Shown here: positions 16,002 to 49,775 of the stretch, piece by piece
Position numbering within the stretch: the stretch's first letter is position 1
Layout of the letters: each line of letters starts with the position of its first letter
Assembly (NCBI GenBank): GCA_964464115.1
Contig: CAYXEW010000005.1
Location: 1-51,306 of the forward strand
Origin: an uncultured Verrucomicrobiota bacterium
GTDB lineage: Bacteria; Verrucomicrobiota; Kiritimatiellia; CAYTQP01; CAYXEW01
Length of the DNA stretch: 51,306 nt
Direction: 5' to 3'
Made by a program: the position numbers and the translations under genes
The notes under the pieces: model-generated
Told to the model about the DNA's origin: nothing
The model's input: the letters and a program-made list of their open reading frames with translations, nothing else
Databases searched by the model: none

Positions 16002-16807
16002 TCTTTTCCAGATGGCTCTACGCCGTAATGATGTAAGCCGTCCACGACCCCAGCGGTATACTTTTGCGGACTGAAGTAGAGGTGAAGCGGAGCCCCTTTT
16101 TGGGTGGATGCCGCTTTCAGCTTTTGTTGAACCCATGCCGGTGTATTGGCGACGATGACAGCCTTATAGCCACTCATAAAAGCGGGGAGATCGTTGCCGG
16201 AGTCGCCGGCGTAGATCATTTTTTCAGGAGCCAGTTCAGTTATCTTCAGCAGATAGTGAAGCGCAAAATCTTTGGCGACCCCGACAGGCAGGATGTCAAT
16301 GAGGCCGATGTCCTTTTTGGAGTCGATACTGAAAATCACATTCCCGTGGATCGTGTGTCTTGCCAATACGGGCTCGATGAGCTGCTTTACGTCATCGCGG
16401 CTCAAACGGGCATCGCAGTAGAAGCTTGCCTTGAAGGGGGCCTGGCATTCTCTTTCCTGTGGTCTTACGTCTTTGCTGTCTTCAAAAGCAGACAAGACAT
16501 CATCCCCCCGGTGACCGCCCATACGTTTTTCCAGCAGGTCCTGGTAGGCTTCATCGTTTTGCCAGGTTCCCTTACTACGTGTATAAACGCTGGTACCCAC
16601 ATCACAAACACAGTAGTCCGGTTCCGGAAGCTGCCATTCCCCCACGCCTTGAAGGGCTAGCTCCAGCCGCCGCCCCGTCACGTAGGCTATAGCCATGTGA
16701 CAACGCCGCTTCAGTTCATGCAGCTGTTCGATGGCTTTTCGATAGGACGCTGCATCATCCAGCGGAATAACCGTTCCATCCATATCACTGGCGAGTAAAT
16801 AATTCAT
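15980..16807 (-). CDS. HAD-IIB family phosphatase, sucrose-6F-phosphate phosphohydrolase-like
   Basis: LLASDMDGTVIP (DxDxT nucleophile motif), ILPVGVAKDFALHYLL and IYAGDSGNDLPAF. It is divergent from the fructokinase/SPS/SuSy operon. Its 3' end overlaps the protease 3' end by 22 nt (convergent). Confidence 0.8.
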   Translation of the reverse strand: MNYLLASDMDGTVIPLDDAASYRKAIEQLHELKRRCHMAIAYVTGRRLELALQGVGEWQLPEPDYCVCDVGTSVYTRSKGTWQNDEAYQDLLEKRMGGHRGDDVLSAFEDSKDVRPQERECQAPFKASFYCDARLSRDDVKQLIEPVLARHTIHGNVIFSIDSKKDIGLIDILPVGVAKDFALHYLLKITELAPEKMIYAGDSGNDLPAFMSGYKAVIVANTPAWVQQKLKAASTQKGAPLHLYFSPQKYTAGVVDGLHHYGVEPSGKDYSSSTL

Positions 16808-16816
16808 GGCGATCCC

Positions 16817-16844
16817 TTGACTACACTAGCTGAAACTCTATTCT
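16817..16844 (+). promoter_or_regulatory. Candidate sigma70-like promoter of the sucrose operon
   Basis: TTGACT (16817-16822), a 16-nt spacer, then TATTCT (16839-16844), about 35 nt upstream of the fructokinase ATG. This is a pattern match only. Confidence 0.2.
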
Positions 16845-16879
16845 TAAATCGTTGCTGAAATTATAGTAAAGCTCATTGT

Positions 16880-17791
16880 ATGCTCGAAAATAAAGAAAAA
16901 AACAGGGTGCTCATCGTTGGGGAAGTACTGTTTGACTGCTTTTCAGACGGGCGCAAAGTGCTTGGTGGCGCTCCTTTTAATGTGGCTTGGCACCTAAAGG
17001 GAATGGGACTCGATCCCTTTTTTGCGAGTCGGGTCGGGGACGATGATCCCGGTCGTGAAATCCTGTTCCAGATGGAAAAGTGGGGTTTGGACCGCACCGG
17101 AATGCAGGAGGATGGTACGCGCCCGACCGGTCGCGTCGACGTCATCGAGCGGGGGAACGGTCATACCTTTGATATCGTTCGGGACTGCGCATACGATTGT
17201 ATGGATGCCGCGGCTGTTCTCAACACGATGCCGCCGCAGCCAGCGCTCCTTTACCACGGGTCACTGGCCTTTCGTTTTGAGCACAATCGGAACGTATTGC
17301 GGCAGCTGCGCGATGCTTGCGATGCTCCGGTATTCTGCGACATCAATCTTAGGGAACCCTGGTGGGAGCCCGAACACACAGCGCAGTTGCTGCGGGCTGC
17401 CTCTTACGTAAAACTGAACGATGAGGAGCTGGATATCCTCTCAGACGATGCGGTGGATACAACGGCCGATCTGGATGCGAAGGCCGCCCGTTTCTGCGAG
17501 CGATATGATCTCCAGTGGCTGATTGTTACCCGCGGAGCCGGTGGGGCGCTGCTCGTTGATCGCGAACATGGAATATGCAGGCATGATTTATCTCCGAATT
17601 CCACACCACCGGTCGATACAGTGGGGGCGGGTGATGCGTTTACGGCTGTTGTCATACGAGGTTTAACAGAAGGTGTTTTCGGTGCGCCGCTGTTGGCGGC
17701 CGCTTCGACACTGGCTTCTCGCATCTGTTCGATCCGGGGGGCGACCACGTTCGATTGGTCGCTTTACAAAGGGGTGTTGAACAATGAGTGA
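16880..17791 (+). CDS. PfkB-family carbohydrate kinase, probable fructokinase
   Basis: VLIVGEVLFDCF..GGAPFNVAWHLKGMG and DTVGAGDAFTAVVIRGL. It overlaps the SPS start by 8 nt. Confidence 0.85.
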   Translation: MLENKEKNRVLIVGEVLFDCFSDGRKVLGGAPFNVAWHLKGMGLDPFFASRVGDDDPGREILFQMEKWGLDRTGMQEDGTRPTGRVDVIERGNGHTFDIVRDCAYDCMDAAAVLNTMPPQPALLYHGSLAFRFEHNRNVLRQLRDACDAPVFCDINLREPWWEPEHTAQLLRAASYVKLNDEELDILSDDAVDTTADLDAKAARFCERYDLQWLIVTRGAGGALLVDREHGICRHDLSPNSTPPVDTVGAGDAFTAVVIRGLTEGVFGAPLLAAASTLASRICSIRGATTFDWSLYKGVLNNE

Positions 17792-19952
17792 AAAACGCTA
17801 TATAGCTATGTTCAGTGTGCACGGTCTCCTGCGCGGGTTCGATATGGAGCTGGGGCGTGATTCCGACACCGGCGGCCAGATTACCTATGTGGTCGAGTTG
17901 GCCCGGGCACTGCATGAGTGTGAGAGTGTCGGCCGCGTCGATCTATTTACGCGAAAAATCATCGATAAGAATATAGACGCCAGCTACAGCGTAGAACGGG
18001 AACCGCTGACGGACCGGGTGACCATCGTACGGATCCCATGCGGCCCCCGCCGCTATCTGAGAAAGGAAAGTCTGTGGCCGTATCTGCCGGGGTTTGTAGA
18101 CAATACGCTACAGTATTTTCGCAGCCGCCGCCGTGTGCCGGATATCATTCACGGACATTATGCAGACGCCGGCTATGTCGGGGGGCAGCTCGCCCGACTG
18201 CTGGGCGTGCCCTTTGTGTTCACAGGACACAGCCTCGGCAGAGTCAAGCGTGAGCGTATGGAGAAAAAAGGTGCCCGGATGGAGGTGGCCGATCGCAAGT
18301 TTAACTTTCCGCGCCGCATCGAAGCAGAAGAATTTGCTCTGGAAACGGCTTCACTGGTGGTGGCCAGTACCCGCCAGGAAGTGCGCGAGCAGTACGAAGT
18401 GTACCACCATTACAACCCTCACCGCATGCGGGTTATAGCGCCCGGCGTCGACCTCAAGCGGTTTTATCCTCCCGAGGGTCCGGTGAAAACGCGCATGAGC
18501 GAAGAATTGAAGCGTTTTTTGAAAGACCCTGAAAAGCCCATGATTCTGGCGATGGCCCGTCCCGATGATCGTAAGAATATAGCGACGCTGGTGCGTGCTT
18601 ATGCGGAAGATAAACAGCTCAGAGAATGGGCCAACCTGGTGCTGATCCTGGGCAGCCGTGATGATATTCAGAAAATGGAGCATTCGGCGCGGCGGGTCCT
18701 GGCTAATTTGTTTTATCTGTTCGATTTTTACGACTTGTACGGGTCCGTGGCTTTTCCCAAGAGCCATGCCGCTGAAGAAGTCCCGGACATCTACCGGTTG
18801 GGCACCGCTAGCAAAGGTGTTTTTGTAAATCCCGCCCTGACGGAGCCTTTTGGGCTGACGCTGATTGAAGCGGCGGCCTCGGGTATGCCGATTGTCGCCA
18901 CCAATAACGGCGGGCCCAATGATATCATCGAAACGCTGGACAATGGACTGTTGGTCGATCCACTTGACGGCGGCGCCATTGCTGCCGCCCTAAAAAAAAT
19001 TGTGTCAGACAGCGGGGCCTGGCAGACCTATTCCGAAAATGGTGTGGAGCGCTCCCGAACGGCCTACTCATGGAAGGCTCATGTCGATACATACATCGAC
19101 CGCCTGAATACGGTTTTTGAAGAAGAGGGGGAAAAGACAGCCGTAGTGCCTTCGCATCGGAGCCGCCTGCCCACGATCGACCGCGTCGTGGTGACGGATG
19201 TCGATAATACGCTGACAGGGGATGATGAAGGAACAGCCGCCTTTTTGAAAGCCCTCAGCGATGCGGGTGAGTTTACGGCCTTCGGTATTGCCACCGGAAG
19301 GAGCAAAGAGAGCGCGCTTGAAGCGCTGAACGAAGCGGGGGCCCCGGTGCCGGATATTATGATCACGTCCGCCGGCGCCGCGATTTATTACGGCGAAAAA
19401 TTGACGCCTGACGTGAGCTGGGAAAAGCACATTCATTACCGTTGGTATCCCGACTCCATACGCAATGCTCTGGATAAGTTACCGGGGCTGTACCCCCAGC
19501 CAAAGGAACAGCAGCATCCCTACAAATTGAGCTATACGATCAACCTCGAGGAATCCCCGCCGATCCACCGCGTCCGCAAATATCTTCGCGAGTGTGAGTT
19601 GCGGGCCAAAGTCATCTTTTCACTCGGTATGTATCTCGATATAATGCCGATCCGCGCGTCGACAGGCCTCGCCATTCGATACCTGGCATTCAAGTGGGGA
19701 CTTTCGCCGGATCATCTATTGGTGGCCGGTGACTCCGGTAATGATGAGGAGATGCTGGACGGACATACGCTAGGTGTGGTCGTCGGCAACTACAGTAGCG
19801 AACTTGAAAAACTGCGCGGTCGTCCCCGCATCTATTTTACTGAAGCCTGTCACGCCTGGGGCATTCTCGAAGGTATTCAACATTATAATTTTTTTGGTGA
19901 AATTAACATCCCTGTAAAAGACGAGGTATCCAATGAAACAGAATCTACTTGA
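17784..19952 (+). CDS. Sucrose-phosphate synthase with C-terminal SPP-like HAD domain
   Basis: IAMFSVHGLLRGFDMELGRDSDTGGQITYVVELARAL and the GT-B C-terminal motif EPFGLTLIEAAASGMPIVATNNGGP. The C-terminal HAD domain has VVVTDVDNTLTG, ATGRS and VAGDSGNDEEML. Length 722 aa. Confidence 0.93.
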   Translation: MSEKRYIAMFSVHGLLRGFDMELGRDSDTGGQITYVVELARALHECESVGRVDLFTRKIIDKNIDASYSVEREPLTDRVTIVRIPCGPRRYLRKESLWPYLPGFVDNTLQYFRSRRRVPDIIHGHYADAGYVGGQLARLLGVPFVFTGHSLGRVKRERMEKKGARMEVADRKFNFPRRIEAEEFALETASLVVASTRQEVREQYEVYHHYNPHRMRVIAPGVDLKRFYPPEGPVKTRMSEELKRFLKDPEKPMILAMARPDDRKNIATLVRAYAEDKQLREWANLVLILGSRDDIQKMEHSARRVLANLFYLFDFYDLYGSVAFPKSHAAEEVPDIYRLGTASKGVFVNPALTEPFGLTLIEAAASGMPIVATNNGGPNDIIETLDNGLLVDPLDGGAIAAALKKIVSDSGAWQTYSENGVERSRTAYSWKAHVDTYIDRLNTVFEEEGEKTAVVPSHRSRLPTIDRVVVTDVDNTLTGDDEGTAAFLKALSDAGEFTAFGIATGRSKESALEALNEAGAPVPDIMITSAGAAIYYGEKLTPDVSWEKHIHYRWYPDSIRNALDKLPGLYPQPKEQQHPYKLSYTINLEESPPIHRVRKYLRECELRAKVIFSLGMYLDIMPIRASTGLAIRYLAFKWGLSPDHLLVAGDSGNDEEMLDGHTLGVVVGNYSSELEKLRGRPRIYFTEACHAWGILEGIQHYNFFGEINIPVKDEVSNETEST

Positions 19953-22314
19953 GTATTCACTGCAGCATAAACCGGCTGTCTACCTATTCCTGAAACAGTG
20001 TGTGGAGGCCCATCGCGCATTTCTGCTCAAATCCGATTTGGTGGATATACTGGAGAACTGTAAAGAAAAGGATGGCGGAGCCGCCCTCAAAACATCGGTG
20101 TTTGAACAGGCCATCTACCATGCGGAAGAGGCCGCGGTTCAAGAGGGGTGGGTTTATCTTTCGGTCCGCTGGGATGTGGCCCATTGGGCCTACTGGCGCT
20201 TCCAGGTAGATCAGATTCTCTGCCAGGAGGTCTCGCCCACCGATTTCCTGGTGTTCAAGGAAAGCATTGTCGAAACGAAACAGCCGGATGATGCATGGGA
20301 CCTAGAGCTGGATGTGTCACCGTTCAAGCGCAATCTGCCGATGTTGCGACAGACTCGTTCCATCGGCCATGGGGTCGAATTTATGAACCGTCACCTGGCG
20401 AGGACCATGACAGATGCAAAAATGGAAGGGTTGCTTGAATTTCTCAAGGTGCATCAGTACCGCGATGTGCAGTTGCTGCTTAATGATCGCGTAAAAGACC
20501 TCGATATGCTGCAACAGGCCCTGCGTGATGCGCGAAACGTGATAAAGAAAATCGACCCCGCGACAGAGTGGTCGGATTTCGCCGGACAGTTGCCAAACAA
20601 CTGCTTTGAAGCCGGGTGGGGGCGGACGGCGGCCGGCGTGGTCGAGATGATGACGCTACTGCTCGACTTGATGGAGTCTCCCAGCAACAGTCTCCTCGAA
20701 GAATTTCTGTCCAGAATACCCATGATTTCCAAGCTGGCAGTCCTTTCCCCGCACGGATATTTCGGGCAATCCAATGTGCTGGGATTGCCGGACACCGGCG
20801 GACAGGTTGTGTACATCCTGGACCAGGTGCGCGCACTGGAAAAGCAGATGTGTGAAGACCTGTACCGCCAGGGTCTGGATGTCGATCCAAAAATTATTAT
20901 CGTGACGCGCCTGATTCCCGATGCGGGGGATACGACCTGTAACCAGCGCATCGAACCGATTCTCGGAACCAATCATACGTATATCCTGCGCGTACCGTTT
21001 CGGTATGAAAACGGGGAAGTGGTGTCGCACTGGATATCGCGTTTTGAAATTTGGCCGTTTCTGGAGCGCTACGCCCGCGACGTGCAGATCGAACTGCTCG
21101 GCGAACTGGGCGGTAAACCCGACCTGATTATCGGCAATTATTCTGACGGCAATCTGGTTGCGACACTGTTGTCCAGACAGTTGAATGTCACGCAATGCAC
21201 TATTGCTCATGCTCTGGAAAAGACCAAATACCTGTACTCCGCCCTGCACTGGAAAGAACACGAAGAGCAGTACCATTTCGCATGCCAGTTTACCGCTGAT
21301 TTGCTGGCTATGAATCATGCTGACTTCATCATAACCAGCACCTATCAGGAAATAGCCGGAACGGATGAAAGTGTCGGCCAGTATGAAAGTTATATGTCGT
21401 TTACCATGCCCGGTCTCTATCGCGTTTTAAACGGTGTGAATATCTATGATCCAAAATTTAATATTGTCAGCCCGGGGGCGGATGAAGAGGTCTACTTCCC
21501 GTATTTTGAACATGACCGCCGCCTGGTAAACCTGCATGATGATATACATGAAGTACTCTATGGACCGCCTCATGAAGGGGCGCGCGGACAGCTTACGGAC
21601 GCGGAAAAACCGTTGCTCTTCGTCATGTCGCGCATGGATTCTATCAAAAATGTGGCGGGTGTTGTGCAGTGGTATGCGGAAAACGAGGCACTGCAGGATG
21701 CGGCCTGTCTTTTTCTCGTCTCCGGCAAGGTGGACCCCGCCACCTCCAGTGATGCCGAAGAGCAGGCGCAGGCTCGCCTCATCCATCAGTTGATGGATGA
21801 ACACGGGCTGGATGATAAGGTCCGCTGGGTCAATTCGATGTCGGACCGTAATTTCAACGGTGAAATGTACCGTGTTGTTGCCGATAAAAAAGGCGCGTTT
21901 ATTCAGCCGGCGCTTTTTGAGGCCTTTGGTTTGACAGTGATCGAAGCCATGAGTTCCGGGCTCCCCGTGTTTGCAACCTGTTATGGAGGTCCGCTGGAAA
22001 TCATTGAGAACGGCGTTTCGGGTTTTCATATCGACCCAAATCGGGGGCAGGAGGCCGCGGAGATGATGGTCTCTTTTTATGAGGCTTGCCGTCAGGATTC
22101 GACCCACTGGGATACGATATCCCGGGGCGCCCTGAAGCGCGTAGAGGAGGCTTACACCTGGCGCCTTTATGCCAATCGACTTTTGACGCTGTCACGCATC
22201 TATGGCTTCTGGAAGCATATGTCCAATGTGGAATCAGAGCCGGTGGGGCGTTATCTGCAGATGTTCTACAGCTTGATGTATCGCCGCCTGGCTCAATCAG
22301 TGCCGGAAAAATAG
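19933..22314 (+). CDS. Sucrose synthase
   Basis: LSPHGYFGQSNVLGLPDTGGQVVYILDQVRALE, GNYSDGNLVA and EAFGLTVIEAMSSGLPVFATCYGGPLEII. Length 793 aa. It overlaps the SPS 3' end by 20 nt. Confidence 0.95.
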   Translation: MKQNLLEYSLQHKPAVYLFLKQCVEAHRAFLLKSDLVDILENCKEKDGGAALKTSVFEQAIYHAEEAAVQEGWVYLSVRWDVAHWAYWRFQVDQILCQEVSPTDFLVFKESIVETKQPDDAWDLELDVSPFKRNLPMLRQTRSIGHGVEFMNRHLARTMTDAKMEGLLEFLKVHQYRDVQLLLNDRVKDLDMLQQALRDARNVIKKIDPATEWSDFAGQLPNNCFEAGWGRTAAGVVEMMTLLLDLMESPSNSLLEEFLSRIPMISKLAVLSPHGYFGQSNVLGLPDTGGQVVYILDQVRALEKQMCEDLYRQGLDVDPKIIIVTRLIPDAGDTTCNQRIEPILGTNHTYILRVPFRYENGEVVSHWISRFEIWPFLERYARDVQIELLGELGGKPDLIIGNYSDGNLVATLLSRQLNVTQCTIAHALEKTKYLYSALHWKEHEEQYHFACQFTADLLAMNHADFIITSTYQEIAGTDESVGQYESYMSFTMPGLYRVLNGVNIYDPKFNIVSPGADEEVYFPYFEHDRRLVNLHDDIHEVLYGPPHEGARGQLTDAEKPLLFVMSRMDSIKNVAGVVQWYAENEALQDAACLFLVSGKVDPATSSDAEEQAQARLIHQLMDEHGLDDKVRWVNSMSDRNFNGEMYRVVADKKGAFIQPALFEAFGLTVIEAMSSGLPVFATCYGGPLEIIENGVSGFHIDPNRGQEAAEMMVSFYEACRQDSTHWDTISRGALKRVEEAYTWRLYANRLLTLSRIYGFWKHMSNVESEPVGRYLQMFYSLMYRRLAQSVPEK

Positions 22315-22550
22315 AAGAGCGCATGGTTACCTATCGGACGTTTGATCCGAAAAGGGGATGACTTTCAATGGTAGTTTGAATAAAAAGGGCTCATCCTGTC
22401 AATCATGAGGCCGCTTAAACTGAAAACAATTCCATAACAATACGCTATTAATAAGCTAACAATCGGGTCTCTATACTGGACGGCATAGAAATAGAAAGGC
22501 CTGTGTGTATACCAGGCTTCGCCCATTGTTTGAAAAAAACTGATTTCGCA

Positions 22551-25358
22551 ATGAAACGCCGAAAAAAAAGTATAGTGTGGCTCGTTGTGGCCCTCTGCTC
22601 GTCGTTGTACACGGCGGGTGCCGAGTACGACCTGGCGCCGCAGGACTTATACACAGCCGGGCTCGCGAAGTTCAGCGAGGGTGACTATATCGGCGCCCTT
22701 TCCTATTTTGAGACACTGGTCAACAAGTTTGGTGAAGAAGCTGAATTGCGCGAATCCCTCGAGCGCGTTCATTATGCGATGGGCTGCTGTTACTTCAATA
22801 ACGGCGATATGGAGGGGGCGGCTGAAGCCTTTGGTCGCTACATGAAAGAATATCCCAAAGCACGGTTCTACGACGAAGCGCTCTTCCGCGTCGGCTCCGC
22901 CTATCAGAACCTGGAAAATTATGATAAGGCCATCGACTATTTTCAGCGGTTGGAAGTAGACTTTCCGACGTCGCCGTTTACAGAGGACGGCCTCTTTCAG
23001 GTGGGACTCTGCCATACCTTTAAAGAAGACCATGAGCAGGCCGTGCAGAGTTATAAAAAATTTATTCGCTACTATCCCTCTTCCGATTTGGCACCGCATG
23101 CGTCTGTCCTGCTGGGACGTTCTTACCTGTCGCTGGGCACCTGGCGTGACGCGCTGGAAATTATCAAAGATGTGCGCGTCGAGTGGCAGTCGGCGGATTA
23201 TAAGGCACAGCTCAACTTTCTCGCCATGGAGATCGGGGATATTGCCTTCGACGAAACGGAGTATGACCTGGCCCTGCAGGCCTACCGGCGCGTACGTACT
23301 AAAGAACATTTGATTCGCACCCAGCGCGAATGGATGGACCTGCTGCAGCGCCGCCTCTCCTATATTAACCGCCAACGCATAGATCCCAAGACCATCAATG
23401 AGCATTTTCGCCTGAAACGCCGTATTCAGAGCTCCCTTTCCAGGGCGGGGAACACCCTGGATGAGTTGATTGAATCACCCAATCATGATGCCCTGCTCTA
23501 TCACCGCATCGGCCGATGCTTCTTTAATAATGAACGCTATTGGGAGGCGCGCGTGGCCTTTACCCGCGTGGTCGAAGACGCGGTCACCGAGGATGTCCGG
23601 GAGTCCGGCATGTTTGACCTCGTTATGGTGCTCGCCAGACAGCGGAAATTCCCCAAAACGATTGCCCAGGCCGACGTCTACCTCTCCGAATACGGCGAGG
23701 TTCAGAAATACATTGATAACAACCGAGTGCCGACGATTGGGTACATCCGGGCGGAAGCGTTTATCAATGACGAGCGGTTTGAAGAAGCGGAACCGGCCCT
23801 GCGCGATCTGATGAATCGGTTCCCCGAGCACAACCAACTGGCACGCATTGAGTTTTACCTGGCACTGTCTCTAGCCATGCAGGAGCAGTTTGCTGAATCT
23901 ATTGAGATGTTTGAGCGCTGGTTGCGTGACTATCCGAACCATATCATGCATTCCGATGTTCGCTATTGGCTCGCAGTGGCTCTCTATTACAGCGGCAATC
24001 ATGGCGCGGCCCTGCCGCGTTTTGTAGACTATGCGAATCAGAATCCGCTGTCGATCTATACGCCGGAGGCCGAATATCGCTCGGCCATGTGTATGTATTC
24101 GCTGGAGCAGTTTCAGCATGCTGCGGACACGCTGGAATCCTGGTTGCGGAGTTATCCCGACCATCACTTTGTATACGAAGCCCTCATCACGCGCGGTGAT
24201 GCGCTGGCGGCGATCGGCAAACTCGAAGAGGCTCGTGCGAGTTATCTGGAGGTGTCCCCGCTGGCCGGCCCTTATTATTACATGTCACTGCAACGCTGTG
24301 CTAAAGTGTACAAAGCCCTGGATGACCCCTTCTACTATAAAGAAATGGCGGCCATCTTTGAGCAGTTTATACACGAGCATCCGGATTCCCTGAACGTCGT
24401 GGATGCCGCCTATCAGGCGGGCTCCGCCCTGCGCCAGATTAATGAAATCGAGCGCGCCCGGAAACTCTACTGGGATAGTATTGAGCGGTATGGAAACCGA
24501 ACCGACTGGGAAGGGTTTACACCGCTGTTTGATGATTTGCGCCACCTCTACGGTGGTGATGCTGTGAGGGAGCTGGAACGACTCATCGAGAACGCCTACC
24601 GCGATGCCTACGCCGAAGGACTTTTCACTCTGGCGGTCCGCTACAAGTGGGCGCTGGCTCGTCTCAAGCCACTGGAAGGGGATGAGTTGGTGGCCGTGAA
24701 TGAAATCGAATCCAGGTTTGATAAGGAGCATATGGGGGCTGAAGAACTGGTAGCCATTTCGGAGACGCTGTTGGCGGCTGATCAGCGCGCCCGCGCCCGC
24801 CCTTATTACGAATACGTTTACAAAACCTTTCCGAAATCCCGCTATCTGGCGCTCGCCCTGATTAGAATGGCGGAAGATGCCCTGGCTGAAGAAAATGTGG
24901 AAACAGCCTTTGCGCTGGTCGATAATGCGCTTCAGCGGGCGATGGACCCCGAAGCACTGATAAGGGGGGTCTATGTGCGCGCCCGTTGCCTCCATGCCTT
25001 GGAGCGTTATGAGGATGCCATCCATGATTACACACAAATTTTGGCTCACCGCACAGCGCCGCGCCCTATGAAGCCCGAGGCCATGCTCGGCATTGCCGAC
25101 TGTTATGAAAAAAATGGCGAGCTGACCAAAGCGGTTCCTTATTACCAGCGCATTTATGTGCTCTATGGAGCCTTTAGCGATGCCGTTGCCAAGGCCTACT
25201 GGCGCAGCGGACAGGCGTTTGAAGAGATGAATGATTACACCGCAGCATCCCGGACGTATAGAGAAATGGTGGCGAACGAAGCACTGGCGGAGTATCCGGA
25301 GTTTGAAAAGGCCAAAGCCCGCCTGGCAGAATTGGGGGAGGCTGTTGATGCCGGTTAA
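22551..25358 (+). CDS. Large secreted TPR-repeat protein (YbgF/BamD-like TPR units)
   Basis: I place the start at ATG 22551 (MKRRKKSIVWLVVALCSSLYTAGA, signal peptide). The track ORF opens at GTG 22503. Repeated units resemble ..ALFRVGSAYQNLENYDKAIDYFQRLEVDFPTSPF... Confidence 0.85.
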   Translation: MKRRKKSIVWLVVALCSSLYTAGAEYDLAPQDLYTAGLAKFSEGDYIGALSYFETLVNKFGEEAELRESLERVHYAMGCCYFNNGDMEGAAEAFGRYMKEYPKARFYDEALFRVGSAYQNLENYDKAIDYFQRLEVDFPTSPFTEDGLFQVGLCHTFKEDHEQAVQSYKKFIRYYPSSDLAPHASVLLGRSYLSLGTWRDALEIIKDVRVEWQSADYKAQLNFLAMEIGDIAFDETEYDLALQAYRRVRTKEHLIRTQREWMDLLQRRLSYINRQRIDPKTINEHFRLKRRIQSSLSRAGNTLDELIESPNHDALLYHRIGRCFFNNERYWEARVAFTRVVEDAVTEDVRESGMFDLVMVLARQRKFPKTIAQADVYLSEYGEVQKYIDNNRVPTIGYIRAEAFINDERFEEAEPALRDLMNRFPEHNQLARIEFYLALSLAMQEQFAESIEMFERWLRDYPNHIMHSDVRYWLAVALYYSGNHGAALPRFVDYANQNPLSIYTPEAEYRSAMCMYSLEQFQHAADTLESWLRSYPDHHFVYEALITRGDALAAIGKLEEARASYLEVSPLAGPYYYMSLQRCAKVYKALDDPFYYKEMAAIFEQFIHEHPDSLNVVDAAYQAGSALRQINEIERARKLYWDSIERYGNRTDWEGFTPLFDDLRHLYGGDAVRELERLIENAYRDAYAEGLFTLAVRYKWALARLKPLEGDELVAVNEIESRFDKEHMGAEELVAISETLLAADQRARARPYYEYVYKTFPKSRYLALALIRMAEDALAEENVETAFALVDNALQRAMDPEALIRGVYVRARCLHALERYEDAIHDYTQILAHRTAPRPMKPEAMLGIADCYEKNGELTKAVPYYQRIYVLYGAFSDAVAKAYWRSGQAFEEMNDYTAASRTYREMVANEALAEYPEFEKAKARLAELGEAVDAG

Positions 25359-26268
25359 GCATGTCAGGACGCGGTGGGTACTGCTGGCAGGGCTGGTGCT
25401 GTTTGCCTGTGGTTCTTTTGCTCAGGATCGTGCGGACGGTCTCGGCCCCTTTACCATGCTGACCCGGCAAGGTGAGGTGACGGTCAAATTACTTCGCATG
25501 GACGATGATCTGGTCTGGATACTGCGCGAGATCAGTGCTGGCGATTGGCTGGAGACAGCAGTGGAAACGCGCGAAATTATAACCGTTCAGATGGAGCGGC
25601 CCACTGTTTTGAAAGCATTGGATGAAGAAGATGTCGAGCTCGATCCGGTGAAGGTGCATGTTTCGCTCAAGGAGCTGGTGGAGGGTCACGCCCCCTTCAA
25701 AACGCTTTCCGGCATGTATTACTATGAAGCCGCTTTTAAGAAGGCAATGCTGTACGAAAAGGGTGAAGACTGGAAGCGGGCACTGGCGCTTTACGAGCGT
25801 ATTTACCCTGATGAAGAAGCCCGCGAATGGGCCGATAAAGCGCGTGTTCATGCCGGTCTCTGTTATGCCAAAATGGGTGATGGAATCAAGGCACTGGATT
25901 TGATTGATCTGGATGCACTCAATGAAGACGACATAAAGCTGCTGTCGGATGGATACTATGCAGTGGGTAACGCCTTGTTTGAAAGCGGGCAGTACGAAGA
26001 AGCCCTGATGCATTATTTATATCTGGTTGTGTTTTATCCGTTTGTTGAAAACAATGAAATACGCTGCCTTTCGGCTTCACTCAGTTGTTATGAAAAAATG
26101 GAAGACTGGCCGGCCCTCGCCAAAGGTTTTACAGCTTTGCGCAGTCACTATCCCGAGACGCCTGAAACGGCTAAAGCGGAGGCGTGGATGTGGAAATATG
26201 AAGAACAGCTGGCCAATGAGGCCAATTTCAGTATTAAGGTTCTGGAAGGGGCCGCGACAGACGAATAA
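25348..26268 (+). CDS. Secreted or lipoprotein TPR-like protein
   Basis: I place the start at ATG 25348 (MPVKHVRTRWVLLAGLVLFACGS, signal peptide with a possible lipobox LFAC), which overlaps the upstream stop by 11 nt. The 39 extra codons in the track ORF (from 25231) lie inside the previous gene. Confidence 0.8.
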   Translation: MPVKHVRTRWVLLAGLVLFACGSFAQDRADGLGPFTMLTRQGEVTVKLLRMDDDLVWILREISAGDWLETAVETREIITVQMERPTVLKALDEEDVELDPVKVHVSLKELVEGHAPFKTLSGMYYYEAAFKKAMLYEKGEDWKRALALYERIYPDEEAREWADKARVHAGLCYAKMGDGIKALDLIDLDALNEDDIKLLSDGYYAVGNALFESGQYEEALMHYLYLVVFYPFVENNEIRCLSASLSCYEKMEDWPALAKGFTALRSHYPETPETAKAEAWMWKYEEQLANEANFSIKVLEGAATDE

Positions 26269-26316
26269 GGTGTTTTGCAGTTTATACAAGTAATTAGAAA
26301 GTGAGGAAAAATTAGT

Positions 26317-27075
26317 ATGATGAAACTGAATAAAGTGTGGAGCGTGATACTGCTATGTGTGTTCACGGTAATGGTGTGCGCCGTATTTGCACAGGAAGGC
26401 GGTGAAGCCGCTGCCGAAGCAGAGCAGAAACTATCCCTGTATGATCTCATTTCCCAGGGCGGTTGGGCGATGATTCCCCTCGGACTCTGTTCGTTGTTGC
26501 TGGTGTCTATGATTATTATGAATGCCAGACAGGTCAGCCAGAAAAAACTGATACCGGAAGAAGTTGTCGCTGACATTCATGCTTCCTCAAAAATGCAGGA
26601 CTTCGGTGCTGTTTGGAACAAAGTAAATGCGGTCGACTGCTTTTTTACACGGGGCCTGAAAGCGGGCCTACGCCACGTCAATGTGGATGACGTGGCTTCC
26701 TCTGTTCCACGCATGGAAGAGGCCATCGGCGAAGCTGTAAGCCGCGAAGAAGCCCAGATATCGTTTTGGATAAATTTTCTATCCCTGATTGCGGGTGTGG
26801 CACCGATGATCGGTCTGCTGGGTACGGTTTCCGGTATGATTGGAGCCTTTCAGCAGATTGCCTCCGGCGGTATGGGTAAGCCGGAGCTGTTGGCTGGCGA
26901 TATTGGTGAAGCGCTCATTACGACTGCGACCGGCCTGACAATTGCCATTCCTGCCGTATTCAGTTACTTCCTCTTTAGAAATATGCTGGGCCGTGTACTG
27001 GCCAGAGCGGAGGAGGAATACTCTATGGTTATGGATGAACTTGCGGGTACCGGAATTGTCGAAATGGAAGAGTAG
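26317..27075 (+). CDS. exbB: MotA/TolQ/ExbB proton-channel family protein
   Basis: LIAGVAPMIGLLGTVSGMIGAFQ and GDIGEALITTATGLTIAIPAVFSYFLFRN. It has an N-terminal signal-like helix plus 3 TM segments. Confidence 0.9.
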   Translation: MMKLNKVWSVILLCVFTVMVCAVFAQEGGEAAAEAEQKLSLYDLISQGGWAMIPLGLCSLLLVSMIIMNARQVSQKKLIPEEVVADIHASSKMQDFGAVWNKVNAVDCFFTRGLKAGLRHVNVDDVASSVPRMEEAIGEAVSREEAQISFWINFLSLIAGVAPMIGLLGTVSGMIGAFQQIASGGMGKPELLAGDIGEALITTATGLTIAIPAVFSYFLFRNMLGRVLARAEEEYSMVMDELAGTGIVEMEE

Positions 27076-27173
27076 ACAGATGACACTTCTCATGGGTGGT
27101 GGTGTTTCTGCACACGCTTAAGAACGCCGTTGAAACGCTGCCTTCCAGAGAATCGTGAATAAGATTTGTTCAT

Positions 27174-27632
27174 ATGAAATTAAAGCGTAAATCTAATATC
27201 GATGCCGAAGTCGACATGACACCCATGATTGACATGGTGTTTCTGTTGCTGGTCTTTTTCATGTGTGCGGCCACGATGTCAAAGGTGGATTTTACTCCTG
27301 AAATCAAGTTACCGATTGCCCCGAAAGCGGATGTGCCCGAGGATTTGCGGAATCGCGGCACCATTAATATCCTGCCGGTGGGCTTCATTACCGTCGACGG
27401 GGAAGAGGTTACGGAAGACAAGCCCTTTATGGTGTCGGGCAGTCTCGTCACGGCAGGTGACCTTGTAAAAATTATCGAAGAGCGCCGGACGGAAGATCCG
27501 GATGTCCGCGTATACATGCGGGTTGATCGCAATGTAGAATATTCACGGGTACAGGAAGCGATCAAGGCGGCCGCTGCCGGTGGAGTGTATGATATTATTT
27601 TCGCCTCTTACCAAAGTAAGGGTGGAGAGTAA
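27174..27632 (+). CDS. exbD: ExbD/TolR family biopolymer transport protein (copy 1)
   Basis: MKLKRKSNIDAEVDMTPMIDMVFLLLVFFM followed by a periplasmic domain ..VRVYMRVDRNVEYSRVQEAIKAAAAGG... Confidence 0.9.
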   Translation: MKLKRKSNIDAEVDMTPMIDMVFLLLVFFMCAATMSKVDFTPEIKLPIAPKADVPEDLRNRGTINILPVGFITVDGEEVTEDKPFMVSGSLVTAGDLVKIIEERRTEDPDVRVYMRVDRNVEYSRVQEAIKAAAAGGVYDIIFASYQSKGGE

Positions 27633-27662
27633 TGCTGAAAGCTGAAAGTGGAATGTTAAGTT

Positions 27663-28106
27663 TTGAAAATTAAGCGTAAAACATCTGATGATAAAGTGGA
27701 AATTGCGATCACACCGATGATCGATTGCGTATTTCTGTTGCTCATTTTCTTTATGGTCACATCGACGCTGCACCGGCAAGAGGCCGATATCAGCTTTGCC
27801 CTGCCGGGAGTGGCAGAGCAGTCAGACTCCGTGGACATCCCGGATGAACAGGTTATACAAATATCGCCGGAAGGTCGAGTTGCGCTGAATGATTTGGAAT
27901 ACGATACCCCCGAAGAGCCGGCCCTGCCGGAACTCACAGAAATGCTGACTCGCTTTAAAGCGACGGCGGAAGCCAACAAAGTAGAAGCGATGATCACCAT
28001 AGCGCCGGCCCTGACGGTCAAGCATCAGCGCATAGTCGACGTGCTCAACGCCTGTGCCGCCGCCAGAATAGAAAATGTGACGTTTGCGGTGGAGGAGGAA
28101 ATGTAA
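27663..28106 (+). CDS. exbD: ExbD/TolR family biopolymer transport protein (copy 2, TTG start)
   Basis: (TTG)KIKRKTSDDKVEIAITPMIDCVFLLLIFFMV is parallel to copy 1, and there is no in-frame ATG before the TM segment. ..ITIAPALTVKHQRIVDVLNACAAAR... Confidence 0.85.
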   Translation: MKIKRKTSDDKVEIAITPMIDCVFLLLIFFMVTSTLHRQEADISFALPGVAEQSDSVDIPDEQVIQISPEGRVALNDLEYDTPEEPALPELTEMLTRFKATAEANKVEAMITIAPALTVKHQRIVDVLNACAAARIENVTFAVEEEM

Positions 28107-29113
28107 TGGTTAAAAAAGCTGCCAAAACGCTTCCCCTCGTGAGCCTGATTACCAGTATCGTTGTGCATGCTATACTCGTGTCCGGCGCCGCTTACGTAAC
28201 GGTGCTGGTGGTGCAGGGTCGTCAAAAAGTGATGTTTGAAGCCAAGAAGACGCCGTCGATTCCTCCCAAAAAACTGGAACATACGATTCGCGTCAAGCAG
28301 ATGCAGCAGCAGGCCCGCAAACCGCAGTTGCTTTCCCGCCTGGCGGCCAATACGGCTTCCAAGGTGGCCCTGCCTGAAATTCCGGATCTGGCCCCGCCCG
28401 AGAAGAAAGATATGCGGGATCAGTGGATGGCGCAGCAGATTGCCGGAGATGCGCTGGGTAATGCCGGTGCTGGTGGAAAAGGGGCCGGCCGCGGTCTTAC
28501 GGGTTCGGGCGGATACTCCGACACTAAATTTTTCGGAGAGAATATCAGGACTCGCGCGATTGCTGTTCTCTTTGATGTGACGAGTACGGTATTTGATTCT
28601 GGGGCCATGGAGTATGCCCAGGAAGAGACGGCCCGCCTATTGAACTCGCTCAACCCGGCTACCAAGTTTACGACTATAGCCTTTACGGATGGGGCCCATC
28701 CCTTTTCCAGCAATATGGTGTTTGGACTGCAGAGCCGGAAGGAAGAAGTTATTCAGTGGGTCAAAGCCCTTAAAATGAATCAGCGCAATGCAAGTGATCC
28801 GCGTTACACCGGTTCGACTCCTTTTGAAAGTATTAAGCTGGCGGCCGAGTTGGGGGCTGAAACCATCTTTATTGTAACGGACGGCGACTTGCCTTATATC
28901 GCCCCCCGCGGGGAATATAAGAATAACGAGGTTAAGGGTCACCGTGAGGAAATGCTGCGATTTGCAAAGACCTTGGAAGTGAGTTTCGCGCGACCCATTA
29001 AAATCTATCCAGTGCTATGCTATCCGAAAGCCGACAAAGAATTTGATGAGGCAAAGGATTTTTACAAGAAGCTGGCCAGGGCCACCGGTGGTCGTTTTAA
29101 AATCGTCGATTAA
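28106..29113 (+). CDS. TonB/TolA-like N-terminal anchor fused to a vWA-like domain
   Basis: The TM helix LVSLITSIVVHAILVSGAAYV carries an S-x3-H motif. It is followed by a Lys/Pro-containing linker, a Gly-rich linker (GNAGAGGKGAGRGLTGSGG), and a C-terminal alpha/beta domain with AVLFDVTSTV (MIDAS-like D-x-T-x-T) and IFIVTDGDLPY. The ATG shares one base with the ExbD2 stop. Confidence 0.75.
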   Translation: MVKKAAKTLPLVSLITSIVVHAILVSGAAYVTVLVVQGRQKVMFEAKKTPSIPPKKLEHTIRVKQMQQQARKPQLLSRLAANTASKVALPEIPDLAPPEKKDMRDQWMAQQIAGDALGNAGAGGKGAGRGLTGSGGYSDTKFFGENIRTRAIAVLFDVTSTVFDSGAMEYAQEETARLLNSLNPATKFTTIAFTDGAHPFSSNMVFGLQSRKEEVIQWVKALKMNQRNASDPRYTGSTPFESIKLAAELGAETIFIVTDGDLPYIAPRGEYKNNEVKGHREEMLRFAKTLEVSFARPIKIYPVLCYPKADKEFDEAKDFYKKLARATGGRFKIVD

Positions 29114-29141
29114 TCGGTTGAGCATTTTGAATCAGCACAAT

Positions 29142-29235
29142 GGAGGGCGGACTTCCACGTCCGCCGAAAAGGTTGTGCGGGAGCACAACCCTCCAAGGTT
29201 CGCCGAAAAGGTTGTTCTGAACAGAACCCGTTCGC
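29142..29235 (+). other. Tandem stem-loop / direct-repeat element between the exb-vWA operon and glyA
   Basis: Hairpin GGCGGAC-TTCCAC-GTCCGCC (29146-29165) and hairpin GGTTGTGC-GGGA-GCACAACC (29171-29190) are both enclosed by GGAGGG (29142-29147) / CCCTCC (29189-29194). An exact 15-nt direct repeat CGCCGAAAAGGTTGT occurs at 29162-29176 and 29201-29215. A weaker third hairpin follows, then a T-run (about 29240-29249). Confidence 0.5.
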
Positions 29236-29324
29236 AATGTTTGTTTTTTGATTGTCCTTTTCATATACTTTCGGTTGAATGCATACATATTTCCATTTGA
29301 AGAAGCTGTATACTGGAGGCTGTT

Positions 29325-30851
29325 ATGATTAATGCTGTGCGTAATTACCTGAACGAAGTGCCGTCCGGAGATATAAATCCGGGTATGCTGGCCTACGTGG
29401 CCAGTTTGACCAAGGTGGCCGAGATATTCCCTGAGATTGCCGCATCGATCGTCAAAGAATTAGAGGATCAGCGCAGTTACCTGAAACTCATTGCCAGCGA
29501 AAACTACTGTTCTTTATCAACCCAGTTAGCGATGGGCAACCTGCTGACGGATAAGTATGCAGAGGGGTTTGCCAATCACCGGTTTTATGCTGGATGTGAT
29601 AATGTGGATGTGATTGAAACCCTCGCCTGCGAAGAGGCGAAAAAGCTGTTTGGTGCAGAGCATGCCTATGTGCAGGGACACAGTGGCGCGGATGCCAATC
29701 TGATTGCCTATTGGGCCATCCTGAGCACGCGTGTGCAGACACCGCTTCTCAAAGAACTGGGAGAAAAAAATCCCTCAAAACTTTCCCGCGAGCAGTGGGA
29801 ACGTATTCGTGGACAGACGGGTAATCAGAAACTGTTGGCGCTGGACTATTATTCAGGCGGCCACCTTACACACGGGTACCGGCATAATGTGTCAGCTCAG
29901 ATGTTTGATGCGCACAGTTATGCTGTCTCCGAAAAAGACGGGTTGCTCGACTATGATCAAATTGAAAAGCAGGCCATGGACCTCAAACCACTTATTCTGC
30001 TGGCGGGATACTCGGCTTATCCCCGGAAAATCAATTTTGCACGAATGCGCGAAATTGCGGATAAGGCGGGTTCGGTATTTATGGTGGATATGGCTCATTT
30101 TGCGGGGCTGGTGGCAGGCAAGGTGTTTACCGGTGAATTTGACCCGGTAAAACATGCCCATATTTGTACGGCCACCACGCACAAAACACTGCGGGGCCCG
30201 CGTGGCGGGCTCGTTTTATGCAAGGAGGAGTTTGCCGAAGACGTCAACAAAGGATGCCCACTTGTTATCGGTGGGCCGCTTCCGCATGTGATTGCGGCCA
30301 AAGCGGTAGCTTTTAAAGAAGCTAACCGTCCAGCTTTCCGCGAGTATTCGGCCCAGATTGTCAAAAATTCATCTGCTCTGGCTGAGGCCTGTGTGAGCGA
30401 AGGGCTTGATGTCGTGACGGGCGGGACCGACAACCATCTACTTTTGATCGATGTGCGACCGCTCAATATTACCGGCCGCCAAGCTGAAAGTGTAATGCGG
30501 GAGTGCGGTATAACACTGAATAGAAATTCGCTTCCATTCGATTCAAACGGCCCTTGGTACACCAGCGGGTTGCGCATCGGGACCCCTGCCGTTACAACCC
30601 TGGGGATGAAAGAAGATCAAATGCGGGAAATTGCTTCCATTATAAAAAGAGTGCTGGTGGAAACCAAAGCGGCTGCAATCAAATCCGGACCGAACGAGGG
30701 CGGAATCAGCAAGGCCAAATATCATATTGAAGACGATGCCCGGGATGAAGCTATGGCGCGGGTGAAAAACCTTCTCAAAAAGTTTCCCGTTTACCCGGAG
30801 CTGGATTTAGAGTTTCTCAAAGAACACTTCCAGAATATCGATGTTGGCTAA
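29325..30851 (+). CDS. glyA: Serine hydroxymethyltransferase (long form)
   Basis: LKLIASENY, TDKYAEGF..RFYAGC, GGHLTHG and the PLP lysine motif TTHKTLRGPRGG. GGAGG lies 6 nt upstream of the ATG. Length 508 aa, against about 417 aa in E. coli. Confidence 0.95.
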   Translation: MINAVRNYLNEVPSGDINPGMLAYVASLTKVAEIFPEIAASIVKELEDQRSYLKLIASENYCSLSTQLAMGNLLTDKYAEGFANHRFYAGCDNVDVIETLACEEAKKLFGAEHAYVQGHSGADANLIAYWAILSTRVQTPLLKELGEKNPSKLSREQWERIRGQTGNQKLLALDYYSGGHLTHGYRHNVSAQMFDAHSYAVSEKDGLLDYDQIEKQAMDLKPLILLAGYSAYPRKINFARMREIADKAGSVFMVDMAHFAGLVAGKVFTGEFDPVKHAHICTATTHKTLRGPRGGLVLCKEEFAEDVNKGCPLVIGGPLPHVIAAKAVAFKEANRPAFREYSAQIVKNSSALAEACVSEGLDVVTGGTDNHLLLIDVRPLNITGRQAESVMRECGITLNRNSLPFDSNGPWYTSGLRIGTPAVTTLGMKEDQMREIASIIKRVLVETKAAAIKSGPNEGGISKAKYHIEDDARDEAMARVKNLLKKFPVYPELDLEFLKEHFQNIDVG

Positions 30852-48767: not shown

Positions 48768-49775
48768 ATGGATCTTCGCACCAACTACATGGGATTAGAG
48801 TTAAAAAATCCGCTGGTGCCCTCCGCATCTCCCCTCTCTCAGCATGTCGATGACATTAAGAAGATGGAAGATGCCGGGGCTTCAGCCGTTGTTATGTTCT
48901 CTATTTTTGAGGAACAAGTTCGCCACGAAGAAGAACAACTGAATTACCAGTTGGATGCCGGCACAGAAAGTTTTGCCGAGTCGACGTCGTACTTCCCTGA
49001 TCTCGGAGAATATAACGTAGGCCCCGAACAGTATATTGAGCTCGTTCGGAATGCCGTTCAAGCGGTGGATATCCCGATTATCGGCAGTTTGAATGGAATT
49101 TCCAATACCGGGTGGATCGACTATGCCAAACGCCTGGAAGAGGCCGGCGTCAAAGGTATTGAGCTCAACGTCTATTACATTCCGACAGCGCTGGATCTCG
49201 ATGCGGCCGCTGTTGAAGGCATGTACCTGGATGTGCTCAAAGCGGTCAAACAGGCCGTCAGTGTACCGGTGGCCATCAAGCTTAACCCATTCTTCAATGC
49301 CATGGCAAACACGGCAAAAAAACTTGATGATGCCGGCGCGGACGCTCTGGTGATGTTCAATCGTTTTTATCAGCCGGATATCGATCTTGATAAAATGGAA
49401 GTGGAAGCCGGGTTGAAGTTGAGTACGGCTGATGAAATGCGCCTGCCTTTACGGTGGATTGCCATTCTCTGCGGTAATCTCAATGCGTCCATTGCCGCGA
49501 CAACAGGTGTTCACACGGGCATGGATATTGCCAAATACCTGCTGGCCGGTTCTGATGCAGTGATGACCACATCAGCACTGCTGAAAAACGGTATTGGTCA
49601 CATTGAGACGATGCTTAATGAATTGACGAAATGGATGGAGTCCAAAGAATATGGATCTGTTGCCGAAATGAAGGGGGCCATGAGTCAGAAGTCAGTGGCC
49701 GATCCGGCCGCTTTTGAACGCGCCAACTACATCAAGGCATTGGAAGATTACAAAAGTAAATACGTAAGCGCATAA
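48768..49775 (+). CDS. Dihydroorotate dehydrogenase-like TIM-barrel flavoprotein (non-canonical)
   Basis: It has a class-1 DHOD-like layout (GLELKNPLVPSASP.., GIELN.., AIKLNPF, ATTGVHTG). The canonical catalytic loop N-x-S-C-P-N is replaced by ELNVYYIPT. Confidence 0.85.
   Translation: MDLRTNYMGLELKNPLVPSASPLSQHVDDIKKMEDAGASAVVMFSIFEEQVRHEEEQLNYQLDAGTESFAESTSYFPDLGEYNVGPEQYIELVRNAVQAVDIPIIGSLNGISNTGWIDYAKRLEEAGVKGIELNVYYIPTALDLDAAAVEGMYLDVLKAVKQAVSVPVAIKLNPFFNAMANTAKKLDDAGADALVMFNRFYQPDIDLDKMEVEAGLKLSTADEMRLPLRWIAILCGNLNASIAATTGVHTGMDIAKYLLAGSDAVMTTSALLKNGIGHIETMLNELTKWMESKEYGSVAEMKGAMSQKSVADPAAFERANYIKALEDYKSKYVSA

Follow-up and report, generated by a model that had tools for sequence, protein, structure and literature searches.

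A vWA-type putative force transducer encoded with an ExbB–ExbD–ExbD motor and two TPR proteins in an uncultured Kiritimatiellia bacterium

A stretch of 51,306 nucleotides from contig CAYXEW010000005.1 (positions 1 to 51,306; hereafter the window) of an uncultured Verrucomicrobiota bacterium of the class Kiritimatiellia (assembly GCA_964464115.1) contains an operon with the gene order TPR, TPR, ExbB/TolQ, ExbD, ExbD and, in last position, the gene of a 335-amino-acid (aa) von Willebrand factor A (vWA) protein, which is the subject of this report (Table 1). A first-pass annotation had described the product of this open reading frame (ORF) as a chimeric protein with a TonB-type membrane anchor, Pro/Lys- and Gly-rich linkers and a vWA-like head. 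When the quoted peptides were checked against the translation of the ORF, the protein proved to be as described and every peptide was found in it: LITSIVVHAILVSGAAYV at residues 14–31 (Ser17 codon AGT, 28154–28156; His21 codon CAT, 28166–28168), KKTPSIPPKK at 47–56, PEIPDLAPPEKK at 90–101, GNAGAGGKGAGRGLTGSGG at 118–136, AVLFDVTSTV at 153–162 (Asp157 codon GAT, 28574–28576) and IFIVTDGD at 254–261. The genomic context, which had been left unused, is decisive for this protein. The stop codon of the second ExbD gene overlaps the ATG of the vWA gene (ATGTAATGG), and the two genes are translationally coupled. The neighbours of the operon are housekeeping genes unrelated to it: upstream a sucrose-metabolism cluster, downstream genes for serine hydroxymethyltransferase, a cytidylyltransferase and an epimerase; a promoter and terminator scan of 22200–29400 gave background levels and was uninformative on the operon boundaries.

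Table 1. Genes of the six-gene module and segments of the vWA protein, in window coordinates.
Feature	Position	Strand	Evidence or remark
Large TPR protein, 951-aa ORF	22503..25358	+	First gene of module; Pfam TPR_6 4e-46, many other TPR families
Small TPR protein, ~306 aa from MPVKHVRTRW...	25348..26268 (start corrected)	+	Overlaps stop of large TPR gene
ExbB/TolQ-type proton-channel subunit, 252 aa	26317..27075	+	PF01618 MotA_ExbB 3.8e-28
ExbD/TolR paralog 1, 152 aa	27174..27632	+	PF02472 7.4e-19; transmembrane Asp20 kept (TPMIDMVFLLL)
ExbD/TolR paralog 2, 147 aa, TTG start	27663..28106	+	PF02472 6.8e-22; transmembrane Asp21 kept (TPMIDCVFLLL)
vWA protein, putative vWA-type force transducer	28106..29113	+	335 aa; last gene of operon
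Transmembrane anchor, residues 10–38	28133..28219	+	S17-x3-H21-x6-A28-x3-T32; AF2 helix, pLDDT 86–93
D-box / "motor box"-like segment, residues 41–50 (KVMFEAKKTP)	28226..28255	+	Position, conservation
Conserved domain-II block, residues 55–93 (KKLEHTIRVKQMQQQARKPQ...ALPEIP)	28268..28384	+	Conservation
Gly-rich segment, residues 114–137	28445..28516	+	Conserved glycines, pLDDT <50
vWA domain, residues 138–335	28517..29110	+	FFG 142–144; predicted MIDAS D157, T159, T161, T238, D259

The AlphaFold2 (AF2) model of the vWA protein, which was made with an alignment of 43 sequences (A1) and has a mean predicted local distance difference test (pLDDT) score of 72, contains a single long hydrophobic helix at residues 10–38. 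Within this helix Ser17 is conserved in 42 of the 43 sequences of A1, and His21, Ala28 and Thr32 are each conserved in all 43. The S-x3-H pair occurs in none of 11 other hydrophobic 23-mers taken from membrane proteins of the window, only one of which contains any His at all, and its presence in the anchor exceeds chance. In E. coli TonB the SHLS residues are S16, H20, L27 and S31, and S-x3-H-x6-A-x3-T in the vWA protein has the spacing of this motif in TonB and TolA. The proposal of a TonB/TolA-type anchor is thus borne out, both by the conservation of Ser17 and His21 and by the location of the gene directly after exbB-exbD-exbD. The accompanying remark that the later Leu and Ser positions of the motif were not obviously conserved has to be withdrawn; their equivalents are invariant in the clade as Ala28 and Thr32, a substitution by which the protein differs from TonB and TolA.

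The vWA domain is detectable only via family profiles and the structure model; direct scans of the protein against Pfam and NCBIfam gave nothing at E ≤ 1, and a single-sequence search against PDB sequences gave noise only. In the AF2 model residues 138–335 form alternating beta and alpha elements with pLDDT of about 80–94, and each of the top 50 Foldseek matches of the model in the PDB carries a vWA or integrin-I-type domain (probability 1.00; E down to 5e-7), including ITIH1, ITIH4, CLCA1, VWF A1, CMG2, integrin I-domains, alpha2-delta and Rpn10. By sequence, a profile of 41 distant relatives (A2) matches ITIH4 at E = 1.4e-15 and ITIH1 at 5.2e-13, and 20 of its 41 members match Pfam VWA. ITIH1, ITIH4 and the integrin I-domains share the fold (Foldseek E = 5e-7) and have D-x-S-x-S and T-D-G in the matching columns, but they are eukaryotic and extracellular, have no membrane anchor or motor coupling, and show only ~13% pairwise identity to the vWA protein. 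The positions of the metal-ion-dependent adhesion site (MIDAS) are occupied in A1 by D157 (43/43), Ser or Thr at 159 (43/43) and at 161 (43/43), T238 (42/43) and D259 (43/43); D157 of the family aligns to ITIH1 D298, the residue mutated in the deposited D298A entry 6fpz. The FFG motif (142–144) is superfamily-wide, and D-x-[ST]-x-[ST] together with D259 is intact in 110 of 125 superfamily representatives. Both the vWA-like head and the D/T/T/D metal ligands suggested in the first-pass annotation therefore hold, the former by the Foldseek and ITIH4 profile matches and the latter by conservation in 42–43 of the 43 clade homologs: the head has a vWA fold, and its five MIDAS positions are all conserved and together form a predicted metal site.

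The same architecture and gene order were described computationally in 2025 in Molecular Biology and Evolution under the name "vWA force transducers" (PMC12204202). The published family, seeded from Tichowtungia aerotolerans (Kiritimatiellota), comprises an SHLS helix, a motor box, a domain II of ~100 residues and a vWA C-terminal domain, and in the AF3 models of that study the transducer helix is set on the motor via His35 (PMC12204202). The vWA protein of the window matches the Tichowtungia transducer in BLASTP at E = 7e-15 (21% identity, 285 columns) and in hhalign with a probability of 99.7% (E = 2.6e-27); S17 and H21 align to S31 and H35, domain II and the vWA head are in common, and the segment after the membrane is a putative motor box. 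Because it is homologous to the Tichowtungia seeds and its Ser/His pair is aligned with theirs, the protein is, as judged from sequence, a member of the published family, and its architecture is not new. It differs from the Tichowtungia transducers in length (335 aa versus ~475 aa), being without their C-terminal elaboration of ~140 residues, in gene number (one in the window versus two in tandem) and in its MIDAS, which is intact (D-V-T-S-T, T-D-G) where theirs is degenerate. MIDAS or metal ions are not mentioned in that study (PMC12204202), and a search for later papers characterising vWA force transducers found none. Since the MIDAS is intact in the window protein and in 110 of the 125 representatives, metal-dependent ligand capture was probably the ancestral mode of the superfamily and is probably its usual one.

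The protein is also not a one-off fusion, as the word "chimeric" of the first-pass annotation suggests; the family is large and conserved. A word-indexed search recovered 187 homologs, all annotated "hypothetical", at 38–49% identity in metagenome-assembled genomes (MAGs) of Kiritimatiellia, Verrucomicrobiota and Lentisphaerota, and an exhaustive profile search recovered 1,660 family representatives at E ≤ 1e-3. Of the 125 superfamily representatives, 118 have an aligned N-terminus, and 93 of these carry His21. Synteny was assessed in 55 species-level genome loci, which come from MAGs only and include no cultured isolate; the patterns of the genome-contig scan were clade-specific and did not recover Tichowtungia, whose sequences were taken from the supplement of PMC12204202. 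Among the loci with enough flank, the ExbD pair precedes the vWA gene in 47 of 47, ExbB is present in 44 of 44, and both TPR genes lie upstream of the motor in 37 of 39. The module persists in relatives at about 24–26% identity, an ExbD gene also precedes the gene of a 446-aa type, and three divergent homologs looked up singly have the same module among entirely different flanking genes. In 10 of the 55 genomes an ORF of ~140 aa (e.g., L025:7424–7849) is found between the second ExbD gene and the vWA gene (loci L021, L025, L030, L036, L038, L039, L040, L044, L057 and L060); its product presumably resembles the four-helix-bundle proteins of the 23S rRNA intervening-sequence type.

This constant neighborhood bears on a reading in which the adjacency to exbBD is incidental and the protein is a vWA protein of the BatA/BatB aerotolerance/MoxR type. 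BatA and BatB (PDB 3ibs, 4jdu) are likewise bacterial membrane-anchored vWA proteins encoded in operons with TPR proteins (BatC), and the family profile weakly matches the BatB structures 3ibs (2e-4) and 4jdu (5e-4) over ~58 residues. They differ, however, in having no ExbBD motor and no SHLS-type helix, and the Bat operon is linked to MoxR and DUF58 genes, neither of which occurs among the scanned ORFs of the window or in loci L001–L005; with ExbD adjacent in every locus counted and the S-x3-H helix conserved, a Bat-type identity is very improbable.

By model scores the motor subunits themselves are closer to the Tol than to the Ton type. The ExbB/TolQ gene product matches the NCBIfam models TolQ at 2e-24 and ExbB at 1.6e-14; neither score reaches the equivalog cut-off. 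Over the motor subunits of the window the TolQ/TolR models outscore the ExbB/ExbD models. The window ExbB (26317–26440) has a signal-peptide-like N-terminal extension (MMKLNKVWSVILLCVFTVMVCAVFA/QEGGEAAAEAEQK) before its first transmembrane helix, which recalls the "long ExbB" proteins of Serratia (PMC9008036). The study that defined the vWA force transducers also defined a second family, TPH-vWA stators, whose helix carries a transmembrane Asp and which lack tolR/exbD genes (PMC12204202); in such a protein the helix would sit inside the TolQ pentamer in place of TolR/ExbD. That the window protein should belong there is hardly credible: both have a vWA head and are associated with a TolQ-like gene, but there is no Asp in residues 10–38 and two ExbD genes that retain theirs are present.

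In 12 of the 118 deep-search representatives, Ala and Gln replace Ser17 and His21, and the KLEH, LPxxP, FxG and MIDAS motifs are kept. The three of these variants that were looked up (L064:510–1529, L066:260–1327 and L067:197–1216) have no ExbD in the 196–509 bp available upstream, and two of the three share a DUF374 gene downstream. The loss of Ser/His thus coincides with the loss of adjacent motor genes on these three short contigs, which is suggestive of a natural control, and the variants may form an offshoot of the family that does not depend on the motor.

Between helix and head lie segments that the first-pass annotation had taken for Pro/Lys- and Gly-rich linkers. The peptides are present, but low-complexity spacers they are not, since they include some of the most conserved blocks of the protein: KVMF44EAKK-P50, KL57EH59xI61RVKQ65MQKQ69xR71KP73Q74, AL89P90ExP93 and YS138D139TKF142F143G144ENxR148T149. 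In the first block F44 is conserved in 43 of 43 clade members and 38 of 41 distant relatives, and P50 in 43 of 43; the segment (residues ~41–50, KVMFEAKK-P) is coil in the AF2 model (pLDDT ~53) and its location just past the anchor is that of the D-box of TonB (PMC10907165) and of the "stator box" (PMC12204202), by analogy with which it may bind ExbD. Domain II, which in the AF2 model extends from the end of the helix to the start of the vWA strands (residues 39–137), is ~100 residues long. Its clade-invariant positions in A1 are L57, H59, I61–Q65, Q69, R71, P73, Q74, L89 and P90, and P73, L89, P90 and P93 are each found in at least 38 of 41 distant relatives. Also invariant in A1 are the glycines G118, G124, G126, G128, G130, G133 and G136, as well as P98, S138, D139, F142, F143, G144, R148 and T149. 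AF2 predicts a helix at residues 54–82 (pLDDT ~70); it contains KLEHxIRVKQMQKQxRKPQ (residues 55–78, window 28268–28339), which is invariant across the Kiritimatiellia clade. Conservation of this kind goes far beyond what a periplasmic spacer needs, and the family description in PMC12204202 offers no explanation for it.

Like TonB and TolA, the vWA protein has one N-terminal anchor, in which Ser and His are spaced by four residues and small or polar residues are conserved at +7 and +11; it is likewise encoded together with exbB/exbD (tolQ/tolR) and has a three-domain layout, and the Pro-flanked, putatively strand-prone segment after its membrane helix would correspond to the D-box (PMC10907165). 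It differs in that its domain II has invariant blocks where theirs has Pro-rich or Ala/Lys-rich repeats, in that its motor has two different ExbD paralogs, and in its head, which is a vWA domain with a predicted metal site and not a domain that acts by beta-strand addition; neither the TonB C-terminal domain (PF03544; Pfam/NCBIfam) nor TolA domain III (PF06519) matches the protein at E ≤ 1. The conserved predicted helix at 54–82 in place of a Pro-rich rod would also suit a protein that carries no force, namely a motor-associated scaffold or regulator, with domain II as a binding surface, that recruits or assembles the TPR proteins near ExbBD or gates the motor, and vWA domains are generic protein-interaction modules. 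Against such a role, which we regard as unlikely, the SHLS-type face, the D-box-like segment and the ~100-residue domain II parallel the force-bearing architecture of TonB and TolA, and the operon has no other gene for a transducer.

The two TPR proteins encoded upstream bear signal peptides. The large one probably starts at Met17 (22551; MKRRKKSIVWLVV...), has a signal-like N-terminus and contains repeats matching NCBIfam tol_pal_ybgF (CpoB) in 9 stretches (1.7e-61); in some relatives it is split into two genes (L001:2989–5241, L003:2723–5185), the second of which carries a staphylococcal-nuclease-like PF00565 domain not detected in the window version. The small one has a cleavable signal peptide (..GSFA/QD), a non-TPR N-terminal domain (VKLLRMDDDLVWI...) and a conserved [LIV]GP[FYW] motif, which in its orthologs stands at the predicted mature N-terminus; the region of this motif may be a peptide with which the vWA head interacts. 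Orthologs of the small protein occupy the same position in related loci. That it might be a lipoprotein (LFAC in the window) was considered and rejected, as the orthologs, where recovered (23 of 49 loci), have cleavable signal peptides ending in A-x-A/Q and the Cys is not conserved.

We conclude that the vWA protein is probably (at a probability of about 0.7) the force-transducing subunit, equivalent to TonB or TolA, of a proton motive force (PMF) motor made of ExbB/TolQ and two ExbD/TolR paralogs. By analogy with TonB and TolA, its helix would use His21 to dock on the outside of the ExbB pentamer, the periplasmic domains of an ExbD heterodimer would capture the Pro-flanked VMFEAK segment like a D-box, and the ~100 residues of domain II would span the periplasm. 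Through a divalent cation bound at its MIDAS, the vWA head would then hold on to an acidic residue of a partner in the periplasm or outer membrane, and rotation of the motor would pull this partner, for which the two signal-peptide-bearing TPR proteins are the best candidates, as partners or as adaptors. A Tol-like role in envelope maintenance is favoured over nutrient import or gliding because the large TPR protein has CpoB/YbgF-like repeats and the TolQ/TolR models outscore those of ExbB/ExbD.

Nutrient import would instead make the protein a functional replacement of TonB, its vWA head energising TonB-dependent transporters or a gated porin for substrates such as polysaccharide fragments. 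The anchor and the motor context are equally compatible with this, and import might be powered otherwise than by TonB, as no recognisable TonB or TolA was found in Tichowtungia aerotolerans (PMC12204202). TonB, however, engages the Ton box through its C-terminal domain, to which the box adds a beta strand, and the vWA protein gives no signal of such a domain; neither the window nor the loci looked up have a transporter gene linked to it, and what is co-conserved with it are TPR proteins that contain CpoB-like repeats. We consider import quite unlikely.

Several observations weigh against a force-transducing role as proposed here, or against parts of it. The contacts of His21 with ExbB and of the D-box-like segment with ExbD are analogies, and the authors of the published family give its function as unknown and state that no deletion phenotype has been reported, speculating on gliding motility (PMC12204202). 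The proposed biological output is the least secure element of this explanation: the TolQ, TolR and CpoB models all score far below their equivalog cut-offs, and neither TolB nor Pal is encoded in the window or at the loci looked up. The link to the TPR genes falls below threshold in 2 of 39 genomes (the rumen MAGs L015 and L047), and the Ala/Gln control consists of three short contigs only. As for the metal site, its geometry is predicted from sequence alignment, Thr and not Ser stands at both 159 and 161 (as in 5 of 43 clade members), and in the Tichowtungia exemplars of the published family the MIDAS is degenerate (D-A-N-K-L or D-A-D-K-R, with C-S-G in place of [ST]-D-G), so that metal-dependent binding cannot be essential in every member of the family.

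A broader proposal is possible but doubtful: the Kiritimatiellia operon would encode a third PMF-powered trans-envelope machine that replaces Tol, Ton or both, in which a heteromeric ExbD motor pulls on a MIDAS bond whose acidic-residue ligand lies on one of the two co-conserved secreted TPR proteins or on an outer-membrane partner, and from which the Tichowtungia exemplars are a derived, metal-independent offshoot. If this were true, the MIDAS bond would be a prokaryotic counterpart of the force-bearing A-domain bond of integrins and von Willebrand factor.

Other features of the window are recorded for completeness. Downstream of the vWA gene is a 25-nt direct repeat (29152–29176 and 29191–29215, 84% identical); a short hairpin is apparent by eye after each copy, although the repeat search reported no inverted repeats there, and an Rfam search of this intergenic region gave no match. 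A second ORF of 335 aa (48768..49775) was considered as a possible paralog of the vWA protein and rejected, as it encodes dihydroorotate dehydrogenase. A protein of 1,729 aa with subtilase (S8) and lamin-tail domains is encoded at 10812–16001. The sucrose cluster (15980–22314) encodes a sucrose-6-phosphate phosphatase, a PfkB kinase, a fused sucrose-phosphate synthase/phosphatase and a sucrose synthase; such clusters are unusual outside cyanobacteria and plants, and this one may indicate compatible-solute metabolism.

TonB and TolA were long the sole known carriers of inner-membrane proton energy to the outer envelope of diderm bacteria. The combination of a motor-docking anchor with a metal-dependent adhesion head would imply another class of energised periplasmic process, and the phylum in which the family occurs is one that has yielded no recognised classical TolA or TonB. 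To this family the locus adds a Kiritimatiellia subfamily of compact proteins (335 aa) that have an invariant domain-II block and are encoded by one transducer gene in a six-gene module, an intact MIDAS as the rule across the superfamily, a possible natural control that ties Ser/His to the motor, and a small TPR protein secreted via a predicted cleavable signal peptide and bearing the [LIV]GP[FYW] motif. Although the architecture is unsurprising after the 2025 study, the intact MIDAS makes this unexplored PMF-driven system directly accessible to experiment.

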